A stretch of DNA of 64,000 nucleotides, taken from the IMG/VR virus record IMGVR_UViG_3300011577_000001. One strand, written 5' to 3'. This document shows, in pieces, positions 2,659 to 13,963 of the stretch. Under the pieces are notes generated by a model. The model was given only the letters and a program-made list of their open reading frames with translations. It was not told where the DNA came from and ran no database searches. Numbering within the stretch: position 1 is the stretch's first letter; the number at the start of each line of letters is the position of its first letter. The stretch comes from a virus (Duplodnaviria; Caudoviricetes). The position numbers were made by a program, and so were the translations under genes.

Positions 2659-4878
2659 GGTAGACGCTGGAACAAAGTCCGAAACCAACTTGGTATTATT
2701 GTCGTTAGACAAGAACACGCCGAGCGATTCCAAGATCAGATAGAACGGTCGGACTGTAGAGTATACCAGTTTGCGAATGTTCATTGCTGACAGCACTTCT
2801 TTTGGTAGACCTGTCAACTCCACTACGTCCTTAGGCAGCAGCAACGTGGTAGCGTTGGTTTTGCCAGCGTAAGTCGCAGTAAGGGTTTCTTTGATCTGCG
2901 GATCTTCGATACCATCCAACCAGAGTTGCAGTGCCGTTTTGTTCGGCAGGTCGAGGGATACCTTGATCGCTTGGTACGGCGGCTTTGGAGCCTCGCCGTA
3001 TTTTGGACGGAACACTCGCTCCCACAGGAGGTAGTGTTGGTATGGTGACTGGCCTGGGTTTGCATAAGCAGCCGGGTCTTTCACCGAAGTCCGTGCCAGG
3101 TAAGTCGATTCAGCACGCATCACAGAACCGATAATGCCGTGTTCGATATCTGCCACACGTTGCATGATCTCGGTGATGCTGATCTTCTTACCGTCGATTA
3201 CAGTATCCATGATCTCGCACATGGTGGCCGTAACCTGTTTCATGATTGCTGGAGGACAGTTCGAGTCTTTGAGGTAAACCCCTTTGATCTCTTCTTCCAA
3301 CTCAGCAAACACGTTCCCTTCTTTGGCTGCCTTGTAGGCGTAGTAATGCTTAGCCATCGAAGTCAGCGAGAACACCGAGAAAGCAAACTCGTTCTTCATC
3401 GCCAGTACGTTCAGCTTGTCTGGTACCACACCGAGTGTAGTCGACAGCATAGCCAACACGTGGATGATCGACTGCGTAGCCAGGTAAACCATGGTGTAGT
3501 CCACGGCAAAAGCGGTTTCGCTAAAGTCAATCTTACCGGTGTACCACTCAACCCAGTTCTGCACGGTGAAGATCGTGGAGTCTGTGTCGGAGGTGATCGC
3601 AACGTGACGGACAGAATCTCGAATCCATGCAACCGAAGCAGGCATGTTGTCGGATACCCAAAACGCTTTGATCAGGTACTGGTAGTCGTTCAGTACAGCG
3701 TGGATGTTCTTGATGGTCGCACCGATCAAGCAGTAGTTCGCAGGATTGACTTCCAACAAACGACCCAGACCCAAGCCTTGTAGCTCCTTAGCGCACAGGA
3801 GGCTCACAAACGCTTTTAAGTCTGCATCCATACCCTTGACATAGACTTTCGCTTCTTCAAGCTCCAGCGGCACCTCAGCCTTCATAGAGAGGCGTGCCAT
3901 GAACACCCGCATTGGTCCGTCGTTGTACTTCGCTAGATGCCAGCAATCGCCGACATACGCAAAGGCCGAACGTTGCAGATCGTTCATCCCTTCAACCAGC
4001 TTACGGATTTCCGCAATCTGACTTTTGTTGTTCCAGTAGTGGTGGGTGGAGTACAGGATCAGCTCCATGACTTCATCCACGGTCGGAGCACGGAAACCGT
4101 ACAGCGACATGGCTTTCTCGATCAACTCATAGTCAACATGACCAATGATGCTGACGATGTTAGCCTTCACTACATCAGGACACCAGTAGTGACGGTTACC
4201 GGCCAAGAACTTCTCGTTGTTGGCGTTCCCCAAACTGGTAGCCACTCGACAGGTCGAAGTCAGGCTCGAGTGAGCAGACTTGTTGTGCAGAATGGTGGAG
4301 GTCGACGCCTGTGCCCCGGACAGACTGTTGTTGGCAATCTTGTACGTAGTCTGTTCGTTCTCCTTGAGTTCCGCCAGTTCTTCCATCTGAGTGGCGTGTC
4401 TGCGAAACTTTGCCGCGGCAACGGTATCGCCTGATTTCTCAGCCTCGGCTGCTTTCAGGTTCGATTCTTGTTGCTCCATCTGTGCATTGTGACCTTCCTT
4501 CTTCACAGCACCCCGGCCGACGATGTTACCGGTGATGTATTCCGACAACAGGGACGGAATAACGTCTGGGTGTTCGTACACAGTCATGGACGGTGCAAAC
4601 AACCAGTTGTTGTCCTTGATGTCCTTGAGGTAAGTTGAGTAGGTCATCTCCGTACGCTCACGGTCACCGACTTTGTTGCGGTGCAGGCAGTACAGAGCTG
4701 GGTCTTTGATCTCGAATTTACCACCAGGACCTGTCACGCGATGAATGTAAGCCTGACAGTCTTCCAACGGCTTCCCCGTACGGACATGCAAGAATATCGC
4801 CATGTCTCGACGGTAGTTAGCCAGAATATCGAGGTCTCGCTTATAAGCGGACGCTGGCTTGATGAAATGGTTTTCCAT
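2650..4878 (-). CDS. Family-B DNA polymerase, polymerase subunit (phiKZ gp50-like)
   Basis: Motif B-like KIANNSLSG, motif C TSDTDSTIF, AKHYY; no exonuclease domain recognised, consistent with the split polymerase of phiKZ-like phages. Start placed at MENHF after RBS GGGAG. Confidence 0.88.
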   Translation of the reverse strand: MENHFIKPASAYKRDLDILANYRRDMAIFLHVRTGKPLEDCQAYIHRVTGPGGKFEIKDPALYCLHRNKVGDRERTEMTYSTYLKDIKDNNWLFAPSMTVYEHPDVIPSLLSEYITGNIVGRGAVKKEGHNAQMEQQESNLKAAEAEKSGDTVAAAKFRRHATQMEELAELKENEQTTYKIANNSLSGAQASTSTILHNKSAHSSLTSTCRVATSLGNANNEKFLAGNRHYWCPDVVKANIVSIIGHVDYELIEKAMSLYGFRAPTVDEVMELILYSTHHYWNNKSQIAEIRKLVEGMNDLQRSAFAYVGDCWHLAKYNDGPMRVFMARLSMKAEVPLELEEAKVYVKGMDADLKAFVSLLCAKELQGLGLGRLLEVNPANYCLIGATIKNIHAVLNDYQYLIKAFWVSDNMPASVAWIRDSVRHVAITSDTDSTIFTVQNWVEWYTGKIDFSETAFAVDYTMVYLATQSIIHVLAMLSTTLGVVPDKLNVLAMKNEFAFSVFSLTSMAKHYYAYKAAKEGNVFAELEEEIKGVYLKDSNCPPAIMKQVTATMCEIMDTVIDGKKISITEIMQRVADIEHGIIGSVMRAESTYLARTSVKDPAAYANPGQSPYQHYLLWERVFRPKYGEAPKPPYQAIKVSLDLPNKTALQLWLDGIEDPQIKETLTATYAGKTNATTLLLPKDVVELTGLPKEVLSAMNIRKLVYSTVRPFYLILESLGVFLSNDNNTKLVSDFVPASTAA

Positions 4879-9885: not shown

Positions 9886-9984
9886 GGGGTCCCCTGATGG
9901 ATTCGAACCACCGACCGTCGCATCCATTCTGTCCCAGGTTTGGACCAAGATGCACAACTCTAACCGACTGAGTTTAAGGAGACC
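9886..9984 (-). ncRNA. tRNA-like RNA with a 24-nt hairpin-containing insert in place of the anticodon loop
   Basis: Acceptor GGTCTCCT/AGGGGACC; D arm AACTC-AGTCGGTTA-GAGTT; stem GCATC/GATGC; T arm GGTGG-TTCGAAT-CCATC; no encoded CCA. Confidence 0.65.
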
Positions 9985-10061: not shown

Positions 10062-10149
10062 TGGCGGAAGGACAGGGACTCGAACCCTGGGACCTGTTAC
10101 AGTCGGCGGTTTTCAAGACCGCTGCAATACGCCGCTATGCGACCCTTCC
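10062..10149 (-). tRNA. tRNA-Ser(TGA)
   Basis: GCGGT-CT-TGA-AA-ACCGC, long variable arm, G73-CCA. Confidence 0.92.
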
Positions 10150-10174
10150 GAAAATCAAGCCAGGGCTATTCCCT

Positions 10175-10461
10175 GGAGTCACTCCCATGGCTAGGCACCA
10201 TGACCGATTAGAGCGAGGTCCTAAGCGAAACCGATCGGCACGGTTACTCGCTTACTCTTTCGAGTACGGATGTCTAGGCGTCTCGTTGTGTGAGCAACGA
10301 TCCACTCGCCCGCAGGACAGGGCCACCAGCAGGGCAGGCGCTTGGTGTTCCTTGGTCAGGCTTTCGCCCGAGACAGCAGTTTCAGCATTCCTTTCGGGAT
10401 ATGCTTAGTCTTCGCTTTACGACGAGGACTGTAGAACGGAAAACCAGGCATGGCTCTCTCC
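10175..10461 (-). ncRNA. Candidate ~290-nt multi-helix RNA between two tRNA-Ser genes
   Basis: Ends pair (GGAG/CTCC and CCATG-C-CTGG/CTAG-C-CATGG); three GAAA-capped hairpins on the minus strand. Confidence 0.55.
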
Positions 10462-10472
10462 TTCTTAGAAAG

Positions 10473-10560
10473 TGGCAGTAGGTGAGAGATTCGAACTCTC
10501 GTGGCTGTTACACCAACACGCTTTCCAGGCGTGCCTTTTCGACCGCTCAAGCAACCTACT
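10473..10560 (-). tRNA. tRNA-Ser(GGA)
   Basis: CACGC-CT-GGA-AA-GCGTG, long variable arm, G73-CCA. Confidence 0.9.
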
Positions 10561-10621
10561 GTGAAAGGTAAAGCAAAGTTCAATCAATACCCGGTGTGTG
10601 GTATCTTTTCGTTTACAGATC

Positions 10622-10709
10622 TGGTGGCCCAGCCAGGATTTCGGGTTGTACCTGGAATGCTACCTTGGAGGGTAGAGTTATACCTTTCGGCGTTTTTAAC
10701 TATTGGGCC
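10622..10709 (-). ncRNA. Non-canonical tRNA-like RNA (6-nt anticodon loop, enlarged D and T loops, CCA end)
   Basis: GGCCCAA/CTGGGCC-A-CCA; D stem GTTA/TAAC; CTACC-CTCCAA-GGTAG; CCAGG-(13 nt)-CCTGG. Confidence 0.6.
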
Positions 10710-10809
10710 TTTCTTACCACACCACTGATTGAATCCCGCGAGGGAACTTCCAAACAGATAGACAAGATTCCTTTGTAACGCGTATTGTATTCGCTCTCTT
10801 TCAAACGAG

Positions 10810-10889
10810 TGGCCAGGGGAGCCTTCGGACCCTACTCCCACGTGGAACCCCGGTTGGTGGGGCTGCTTTAGAGCTTTTAGCGACTGGCC
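10810..10889 (-). ncRNA. Divergent cloverleaf-like RNA candidate
   Basis: GGCCAG/CTGGCC-A; GCT/AGC arm; AGCCCC-ACCAACC-GGGGTT; GGGAGT/GCTCCC; canonical D- and T-loop residues absent. Confidence 0.35.
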
Positions 10890-11071
10890 TTTCTACGTTA
10901 CCGCTGTCTATCAAAATCACAAGCAGTAGATTTCACCGTACCGTCGGCTGTGATGTTACTTTCTACTTGCCTAGGCTTTCGCCTTGATTCCCTGCATCCA
11001 GACTCGCGTTACTGGATACTGCTTGTGATCTTTGTCAACCATCTTGTCGAGGACGACAACACAGTCGAACA

Positions 11072-12384: not shown

Positions 12385-12461
12385 TGGCTGGGATAGTTGG
12401 GCTCGAACCAACGACCTGGTGATTAACAGTCACCCGCTACTACCAACTGAGCTATATCCCA
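12385..12461 (-). tRNA. tRNA-Asn(GTT)
   Basis: GGTGA-CT-GTT-AA-TCACC, U1-A72, G73-CCA. Confidence 0.93.
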
Positions 12462-12964
12462 TTATAACGAATACCAAGAGCTACCCGACGAACCGTGTCT
12501 TTACCGATTTCAAACTCCCGAGCAATTGCTCGATAGCTCATGGTACCGACCAGTTCAAGGATAGCCTTGACTGACTCTTCATCAAGCGCAGCATGTGGGC
12601 TGTCAAACCCTTTCTTGCCTTCATACAAACCTAAGGCTTGCGCATGATCAATATTACCTTGATGCGTTACCCACTCCAAGTTATCCCACCGGTTATTTGT
12701 CTTATCCGTGTCCTTATGGTTCACGAAGGGAAGATTCAACGGGTTAGGGACAAAAGCCTTGGCCACTTGTACATGAGCCCTTAAACAGAACGACTTACCT
12801 TTCCTTCCTCCTATCTTGGAGGCGTGAGTAAGATAGCCATTATGGTTGGGCGTCAGTGCCAAATCTTGGAACGTGCGAATGCTAAACAGTGTCCCGAAAT
12901 TGCCGATCATGAAGAGATCAGGGTAGTCAGGACATTCCGTGAAGACTTCAAATTCATACGACAT
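12452..12964 (-). CDS. Free-standing HNH homing endonuclease with C-terminal HTH
   Basis: H...VAKAFVPNP...VNHKDTDKTNNRWDNLEWVTHQGNIDHA; HTH-like SYRAIAREFEIGKDTVRR; early promoter at ~12990-13012. Confidence 0.9.
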   Translation of the reverse strand: MSYEFEVFTECPDYPDLFMIGNFGTLFSIRTFQDLALTPNHNGYLTHASKIGGRKGKSFCLRAHVQVAKAFVPNPLNLPFVNHKDTDKTNNRWDNLEWVTHQGNIDHAQALGLYEGKKGFDSPHAALDEESVKAILELVGTMSYRAIAREFEIGKDTVRRVALGIRYNGI

Positions 12965-13036: not shown

Positions 13037-13113
13037 TGGCGCCTCCGAGGGAACTTGAACCGTCGACCCCCGGCGTGACAGGCCGGTGCTCTAACCAACT
13101 GAGCTACGGAAGC
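13037..13113 (-). tRNA. tRNA-Asp(GTC), poorly paired T stem
   Basis: CCGGC-CT-GTC-AC-GCCGG, G73-CCA; T stem GACGG/TCCCT has mismatches. Confidence 0.8.
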
Positions 13114-13307
13114 GAAAACGTCCTGAGGAAAATGGACTCTGCAATCACCCAGACTGTGCCTGTAGGTGCATCGCGTGTAGGCTCAAGGTTCATGTAGACA
13201 ACCATGGGCCAAGAACAATCCTGAGCGTGTCGACCGACGTGTAGCACTCGGAAGCGCAACCCGCTAGGAGAGAGGTACTCTCGATCCTTCTCGACAAACT
13301 CTAACAT
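13104..13307 (-). CDS. DUF1653-like small protein
   Basis: Y...G..FRV...GRH....MVVY..L......VWV....F..TF pattern; RBS GAGGA. Confidence 0.65.
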   Translation of the reverse strand: MLEFVEKDREYLSPSGLRFRVLHVGRHAQDCSWPMVVYMNLEPTRDAPTGTVWVIAESIFLRTFSLP

Positions 13308-13558: not shown

Positions 13559-13869
13559 TTTTCGTAACGCACAAAGGCAAACGACACGGCATGGCAAAGG
13601 ATCGTAAGGGTGGTCTCCCCGTAGTTCTCCCACGAGGTTAAGGGACCGCTGCGGCGCTATGCTAGATGCTTTTGTCCGCTGCGACAATCCAAGACCGTTG
13701 TTTGACACGCCTCGCCTCATTGGGTTGGAATTCCCGAGACTTATTTTCCCTGACTGATGACGCTCTCAGCATCGACCGAGCGGGTTACTCCTTTCCAAGG
13801 GAGCACCTATCTAAGTCTTACAAGGTAAAACCACCGTATCGCCAGCAAGGGTCGTCGCGGTGTTAAAAG

Positions 13870-13956
13870 TGGTGGTCGAAGGATGGAATTGAACCTCTAG
13901 CACAAGGCGGCGCGTTTACAGCGCGCTGACAGTAGCCATCTGTCTCTACAACGACC
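13870..13956 (-). tRNA. tRNA-Tyr(GTA), atypical or degenerate
   Basis: GCGCG-CT-GTA-AA-CGCGC, A73-CCA; two U-U mismatches in the acceptor; irregular D and T arms. Confidence 0.65.
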
Positions 13957-13963
13957 GTGAAAC

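Follow-up and report, generated by a model that had tools for sequence, protein, structure and literature searches.

A candidate structured RNA between two serine tRNA genes of uncultured phiKZ-like jumbo phages, with an exchangeable micro-ORF cassette on its 5' side

On the map of phage T4, RNAC and RNAD are encoded alongside the tRNA genes. These two transcripts were detected by northern blot and have been described as 'RNAs of yet unknown functions' (PMC9697503). In the giant phage 201phi2-1, premature termination gives rise to a 5'UTR-derived sRNA, with its end at a terminator that immediately precedes a tRNA (PMC11512511). GOLLD and ROOL are structured, pseudoknotted RNAs of phages and prophages that often lie near tRNA islands, many GOLLD RNAs exceeding 800 nt (PMC12286853), and theta (HDV-like) ribozymes have been reported in phage tRNA arrays, where they are tied to the formation of tRNA ends (PMC10879173). 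A large screen of IMG/VR for structured RNAs set a minimum of three IMG/VR regions and described motifs of 29-151 nt (PMC10690425).

Here we analysed the spacer between two serine tRNA genes in 64,000 nucleotides of viral DNA (IMG/VR record IMGVR_UViG_3300011577_000001), a stretch referred to throughout, at its full length, as the window. The 3' part of this spacer, which we call the core, most likely represents a new non-coding RNA family of a known type, namely the non-tRNA RNAs encoded within phage tRNA clusters. It resembles T4 RNAC and RNAD, which are likewise small, stable non-tRNA phage RNAs encoded with tRNA genes, but it shares no sequence similarity with them by blastn, belongs to another phage family, is larger (~200 nt) and predicted to be pseudoknotted, and is known from sequence alone. 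The sRNA of 201phi2-1 (also found in PAK_P3) is comparable in that it comes from a phiKZ-like giant phage and ends just upstream of a tRNA. It was, however, defined by transcript ends, whereas the core is defined by conserved structure and no homology between them is expected; moreover, the core lies between two tRNAs and would need no promoter of its own. GOLLD and ROOL (the latter ~580 nt) are much larger than the core, and they have Rfam models, which do not match here. Theta ribozymes share with the core their embedding in phage tRNA arrays; they are small, follow immediately on a tRNA and fold as nested double pseudoknots, the Rfam HDV-type models have no match here, and the topology proposed for the core, in which a hairpin loop pairs with a downstream junction, differs from that of HDV. 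With two IMG/VR occurrences and a length of ~200 nt, the core probably fell outside the published IMG/VR screen (PMC10690425).

The window comes from an uncultured phiKZ-like jumbo phage. Its PHROG matches include a DNA polymerase, a large terminase, virion proteins and a split phiKZ-type RNA-polymerase beta subunit, and the closest cultured phages, Xanthomonas phages Xoo-sp14 and LucasX and Burkholderia phage FLC9, have a DNA polymerase only 42-44% identical. ARAGORN called eight tRNA genes between 9714 and 13114, all on the minus strand. Two of them, both tRNA-Ser genes called by ARAGORN as well as Rfam on the minus strand, bracket the spacer as the original prediction had stated:

10473-10560, minus strand: tRNA-Ser (anticodon GGA), the upstream flank, with CCA encoded (ARAGORN; Rfam tRNA model, 52.9 bits)
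10150-10472, minus strand (the tRNA strand): Ser-Ser spacer, 323 nt, between tRNA-Ser(GGA) and tRNA-Ser(UGA)
10062-10149, minus strand: tRNA-Ser (anticodon UGA), the downstream flank (ARAGORN, Rfam), whose RNase P site would set the 3' end of the spacer RNA

A cmscan check agreed with the earlier view that no known RNA family is present. The 4227 models of Rfam 15, which include ribozymes, riboswitches, T-box, 6S, tmRNA, RNase P, Y RNA, GOLLD and ROOL, matched only tRNAs at scopes of 64 kb, 5 kb and 341 nt; at E <= 10 the sole match in the 341-nt search was one of 12.7 bits to a mammalian lncRNA model, which we regard as chance. A Y RNA (YrlA) acting with Rsr/Ro60 was also considered and rejected, there being no Rfam Y-RNA match. 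A TROVE/Rsr match of 25 bits in a complete relative (G003) proved spurious, as it runs antisense to conserved ORFs and contains three stops.

Searching IMG/VR with the DNA polymerase yielded two syntenic contigs carrying the same tRNA array (L002 and L003), and a DNA pattern scan of metagenome contigs added further homologues. After removal of duplicates and of a chance match from the metagenome scan (L016), the set comprised eight distinct sequences, which fall into group A (the window, L015 and L002) and group B (L003, L011, L009, L012 and L010). All eight carry homologous sequence between tRNA-Ser(GGA) and tRNA-Ser(UGA), in spacers of 215-612 nt. A covariance model built from the core (R1) scored the core homologues at 192-211 bits; it rejected L016 and also four pattern-scan matches among 185,579 prokaryote genomes, which are likewise chance. 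R1 detected no second copy of the core elsewhere in the window and no homologue in the whole records of two more distant contigs (L001 and L004) or of Xoo-sp14, LucasX and FLC9. Queries with two proteins and two DNA patterns for further relatives in IMG/VR returned only L002 and L003 again, blastn and megablast against cultured phages gave tRNA matches only, and the spacer had no significant blastn match among 50,697 phage records, which include T4-like phages. The core family appears to be restricted to a single narrow clade of jumbo phages, all of them uncultured. About 30% of positions differ between the cores of groups A and B, which can nevertheless be aligned at ~70% identity where neighbouring proteins of the window and L003 are only ~59% identical, a sign of constraint on the core.

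Alignment of the spacers revealed that only the 3' ~200 nt are common to all homologues, and the spacer resolves into the following parts:

10353-10472, minus strand: 5' module, present in five homologues and missing from three (L002, L003 and L011)
10458-10463, minus strand: putative Shine-Dalgarno sequence AAGGAG, 6 nt before the micro-ORF ATG, with GGAG kept in all five ORF-bearing homologues
10356-10451, minus strand: candidate micro-ORF of 31 codons plus stop, whose translation is the basic peptide MPGFPFYSPRRKAKTKHIPKGMLKLLSRAKA; it includes two GAAA 'loops'
10150-10352, minus strand: conserved structured RNA core, 203 nt, in all eight distinct homologues

What precedes the core takes four forms. 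The window, L009, L010, L012 and L015 have a cassette with GGAG, ATG and an ORF of 31-32 codons; L002 and L003 have a 52-nt cassette containing a GCGCC-UCA-GGCGC hairpin; in L011 the core stands alone, separated from the CCA by ~10 nt (7-17 nt, according to where its start is set); and L015 has an additional 92-codon ORF ahead of its micro-ORF. This last ORF (5099-5374 of L015, minus strand), Cys-rich and with a GGAG of its own, lies between tRNA-Ser(GGA) and the micro-ORF and has no Pfam match. The similarities of the two modules are discordant. The window and L009 are 91% similar in the cassette and 71% in the core, the window and L015 are 70% similar in the cassette and 90% in the core, and L002 and L003 are 87% and 72% similar, respectively. 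Such discordance indicates that the modules recombined and puts a module boundary near 10352/10353. The alignments therefore describe a spacer made of two modules with different histories, in which every homologue retains the core but 5' cassettes have been exchanged or lost, and not the single closed domain of ~290 nt that had been proposed.

The 5' cassette has the features expected of a small protein gene. Frame, start, stop and Shine-Dalgarno sequence are kept in the window, L009, L010, L012 and L015. Where the window, L009 and L012 differ, they do so only at codon positions 1 and 3, with three synonymous and two non-synonymous codon changes between the window and L012, and in L015 the frame survives a 3-nt indel although about half of the residues differ. 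The spacing of the Shine-Dalgarno sequence, the conserved start, stop and frame and the synonymous changes together suggest that the micro-ORF is a gene. It could instead be untranslated, and searches for its homologues with Pfam, with tblastn against phages and in the relative genomes G003 and G004 found nothing.

This cassette bears directly on the hairpins that had drawn attention to the locus. All four listed hairpins are present on the tRNA strand: CGGGC-GAAA-GCCUG at ~10369-10356, CCC-GAAA-GG at ~10400-10391, ACUC-GAAA-GAGU at 10265-10254 and CCAGGG-AAUAG-CCCUGG at 10176-10160. The first contains the codons CGG GCG AAA GCC directly before the stop of the micro-ORF. The second contains CCG AAA GGA, which reads CCC AAA GGA in L009, L010 and L012, so that a synonymous change of CCG to CCC turns the loop from GAAA into CAAA. 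Coding appears to be the best explanation of these two loops, which in any case belong to a cassette missing from three homologues. The GAAA loop of the third hairpin, located in the core, sits on a conserved stem but occurs in the window only and is replaced by GGAA in L015, AAAA in L002 and 7 nt in group B. The description of the stretch as GNRA-rich does not hold, and the case teaches that eye-catching GAAA hairpins can be codons.

Combining single-sequence folds, group-wise RNAalifold and inspection, we arrived at a model of the core with eight stem regions (P1-P8), a pseudoknot and several invariant loops:

10323-10348, minus strand: P1, a hairpin with a nearly invariant loop of 12-15 nt (14 nt in the window; core AGCGCCUGCCC) and two compensatory pairs in L015
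10266-10313, minus strand: P2 (10313-10309 with 10270-10266), enclosing P3, with compensatory pairs
10305-10278, minus strand: P3, a hairpin interrupted by a 2x2 internal loop and capped by the invariant loop CUCACA, 100% paired with three compensatory pairs on the raw MAFFT alignment
10254-10265, minus strand: P4, the short ACUC-GAAA-GAGU hairpin of the window, whose stem covaries (U-A to C-G) and whose loop varies
10223-10253, minus strand: P5, a long hairpin (P5a and P5b) with compensatory pairs in both parts, predicted by RNAalifold in both subgroups
10239-10234, minus strand: 5' strand of the predicted pseudoknot, the P5b loop GCCGAU, complementary to AUCGGU
10203-10208, minus strand: 3' strand of the predicted pseudoknot, AUCGGU, between P6 and P7, pairing with the P5 loop
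10182-10213, minus strand: P6 (10213-10210 with 10185-10182), a weak stem of 3-4 bp enclosing the pseudoknot strand and P7
10202-10186, minus strand: P7, a hairpin with three compensatory pairs
10160-10176, minus strand: P8, a GC-rich hairpin found by the terminator-pattern scan and followed by CUUGAUUUUC (10159-10150), with an A-U to G-C compensatory change in all of group B

In this model the pseudoknot is of the classical H-type, with a 5-bp stem 1, a 1-nt loop and a 6-bp stem 2. Its pairing is GCCGAU/AUCGGU in group A and ACCAU/AUGGU in group B, where one G-C pair is lost on both sides, a G-U becomes A-U and the wobble changes are one-sided; few informative changes bear on the pseudoknot and on P6. 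The loops of P1 and P3 and the stretch GUGACUCC between P7 and P8 are invariant while the stems vary. Two other helices were rejected. CAAGC/GCUUG, which would close the ends and was predicted by RNAalifold for three sequences, has an uncompensated loss of an A-U pair in each of the five group B sequences (column 207, U to C) and clashes with P1 and P8, both of which covary. AUCUC/GAGGU, predicted by group-wise RNAalifold for group B, is missing in group A. The pairing of the 5' and 3' ends asserted originally amounts to a 2-bp contact in the MFE fold, and the CAAGC/GCUUG helix gives it no support.

On the raw MAFFT alignment, with the register of the window, 74% of cells pair, as compared with 30-48% when the partners are slid by 1-3 columns; 13 pairs changed on both sides versus 3-4 in the slid controls, and the covariation score was 0.21 versus at most 0.09, although eight sequences from one narrow clade give such covariation statistics little formal power. 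None of 500 shuffles, which ignore relatedness, reached the observed values. P8, like P3, is 100% paired on this raw alignment. With registers set by hand, 58 pair positions are 94.6% canonical and 18 of them show compensatory changes, figures that are biased, since these registers were chosen to pair. Realignment with the covariance model had left the register shifts in place. The shifts, of 1 nt, affect P2, P4, P5b, the pseudoknot and P7 in group B, and also P1 in L009, L010 and L012.

Compensatory changes come from several separate lineages, namely L002, L015, the window, group A versus B and subgroup B1 versus B2. L002 alone contributes changes in P3a, P3b, P7 and P5a, L015 alone in P1 (CACCA/UGGUG to CCACA/UGUGG) and P2, and the window alone in P4, while groups A and B differ by compensatory changes in P2, P5a, P5b, P6, P7 and P8. 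One P7 pair changed from U-A to C-G independently in L002 and in L009, L010 and L012. Separate RNAalifold runs on each subgroup recovered P3, P5, P7 and P8. The paired cells include 41 G-U pairs, which would be A-C on the opposite strand, and this places the RNA on the tRNA strand. No reading frame of the core is open in all homologues, and the indels among them measure 1, 4 and 5 nt.

With compensatory pairs beyond those of the controls and no conserved frame, the core has the properties of a structured non-coding RNA. The suggestion of a structured RNA on the tRNA strand is thereby upheld for the 3' two-thirds of the spacer (10150-10352), conserved and non-coding, while the 5' third is a putative micro-protein cassette. 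Folding energy contributes less. The whole spacer has a z-score of -2.7, but the core gives only -1.6 in the window, -0.4 in L011 and -0.8 on the opposite strand, values within chance on thermodynamics alone. Since the folding energy of the core is unremarkable, the evidence for its structure is comparative.

We consider it fairly probable that the core is a new structured non-coding RNA, co-transcribed with the tRNAs and excised from their precursor, and that the micro-ORF cassette is a separate module. The core lies on the tRNA strand with no room for a promoter of its own or of the next tRNA, and hence it is almost certainly transcribed within the tRNA precursor. Release by tRNA processing, as anticipated in the original prediction, is plausible: the RNase P cut at 10149/10150, needed for the maturation of tRNA-Ser(UGA), would free a 3' end consisting of P8 and a 10-nt tail, and the 5' end would come from 3'-end maturation of tRNA-Ser(GGA). 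Alternatively, partial termination at P8 would yield a nearly identical 3' end. In the window and some relatives a separate cassette, with a Shine-Dalgarno sequence and 31 codons for a very basic peptide, has been placed before the core, so the RNA released in the window would amount to a very short mRNA whose 3' domain is structured, and that of L011 to a bare core. The invariant loops (P1, P3 and GUGACUCC) are candidate contacts with a partner, suggesting action in trans. Complements of the invariant P1 loop within the window numbered five versus four expected, which is the chance level.

An excised, stable and trans-acting structured RNA is the most likely reading, and its main rival is a cis-acting leader or attenuator. 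There, a structured sensor domain would govern P8 and its U-rich tail as a conditional terminator of read-through into tRNA-Ser(UGA) and the tRNAs that follow, with the short RNA arising merely as a by-product. P8 does fit the pattern of an intrinsic terminator, is listed by the terminator-pattern scan and sits 10 nt before the tRNA; riboswitches and T-boxes are usually laid out in this way, with a pseudoknotted domain of ~200 nt and then a terminator hairpin; the 5' half of P8 could pair with CCCUG sequences present in the P1 loop and again after P1; and the sRNA of 201phi2-1 offers an example of premature termination immediately upstream of a tRNA (PMC11512511). The U-tract, on the other hand, is weak (UUGAUUUUC; UCGAUUUC in group B), with 3-5 U broken by G, A or C in the U-rich linker, no riboswitch or T-box model of Rfam matched even in the 341-nt search, and the antiterminator alternative lacks covariation support. 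We know of no ligand or logic for regulating a tRNA by such an attenuator, and we judge this arrangement unlikely.

Still less likely is that the spacer is ordinary DNA whose similarity reflects recent ancestry or hitch-hiking with the tRNAs, its hairpins being due to chance or serving as signals for processing or stability. A folding z-score near the shuffled expectation and a family of few sequences in one narrow clade would be in keeping with it, but the cores have diverged far enough that 18 pair positions changed on both sides and yet still pair, in several independent lineages, and sliding the partners leaves far fewer two-sided changes. Nor would ordinary spacer be expected to hold the P1 and P3 loops and GUGACUCC invariant next to variable stems, or to keep the core always while 5' cassettes come and go.

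A bolder possibility, to which we attach very little weight, is that the core founds a functional RNA class of its own, whose members act on, or sense, either serine tRNAs or the machinery of tRNA processing and defence, for example as a tRNA-responsive attenuator of read-through into tRNA-Ser(UGA) or as a decoy for host nucleases that target tRNAs with long variable arms. In favour of the attenuator, both cognate Ser codons occur in invariant parts of the core, UCA in the P3 loop and UCC in GUGACUCC. The basic micro-peptide might be an RNA-binding partner. Hardly tenable is the original proposal of one closed, tertiary-folded GNRA-rich domain of ~290 nt, possibly a ribozyme or scaffold: the four hairpins exist, the pseudoknot and the invariant loops hint at compact folding and theta ribozymes do occur in phage tRNA arrays (PMC10879173), but two of its GAAA loops are codons of a conserved ORF in a module missing from three homologues, the third is not conserved as GNRA, the end-to-end pairing is unsupported, the two modules differ in history, no ribozyme family matches in Rfam, and nothing points to a ribozyme.

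Several other features of the tRNA array and its surroundings deserve mention. An HNH homing-endonuclease gene lies within the array (12452-12964, minus strand; phrog_59, E = 5e-38) and fits a mosaic gain and loss of cassettes there. Two non-coding units, 10762-10914 and 10921-11024, are 90% and 99% identical to positions 3683-3835 and 3853-3956 of L002, where their order relative to the tRNAs is swapped; these alignments suggest that modules the size of an RNA are moved around inside the array. The spacer upstream of tRNA-Ser(GGA) (10561-10736, minus strand), taken together with the tRNA, is ~81% identical to both L002 and L003 and is another candidate structured spacer. At 9888-9984 (minus strand) the tRNA-Sec model gives a weak, tRNA-like match of 20.9 bits, and at this position the relatives have tRNA-Ala, tRNA-Leu(tag) or an unusual tRNA whose 'anticodon' is 2 nt long; the element may be an aberrant or expanded tRNA. 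At 13866-13963, ~94 nt are 87-88% identical to unannotated DNA of unrelated ~95 kb Pseudomonas phages (KIL and phiPsa374 groups), the sole megablast match in 25 kb. This region overlaps a weak tRNA-Sec-like cmscan match (13874-13956) and may be an unusual tRNA or tRNA-like gene missed by ARAGORN. Just upstream of tRNA-Asp, a 67-codon ORF (13104-13307, minus strand) encodes a protein 91% identical in L002 and 84% in L003, a conservation exceeding that of most neighbouring proteins, and it has no Pfam match.

Phage tRNA clusters have come more and more to be viewed as islands of counter-defence and translation tuning. To our knowledge, the non-tRNA RNAs associated with them, such as RNAC and RNAD of T4, GOLLD and ROOL, have had no function assigned for decades. 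If the reading of the core as an excised structured RNA is right, the present locus would add to them a compact, pseudoknotted family of ~200 nt from jumbo phages of the nucleus-forming type in environmental metagenomes. The core would be small enough for structure probing, mutational analysis and pull-downs, and its natural variants (core alone, core with a hairpin cassette and core with a micro-ORF) provide a ready-made comparative experiment. What would distinguish the family is its fixed place between two Ser isoacceptors, with a swappable micro-gene cassette on its 5' side.
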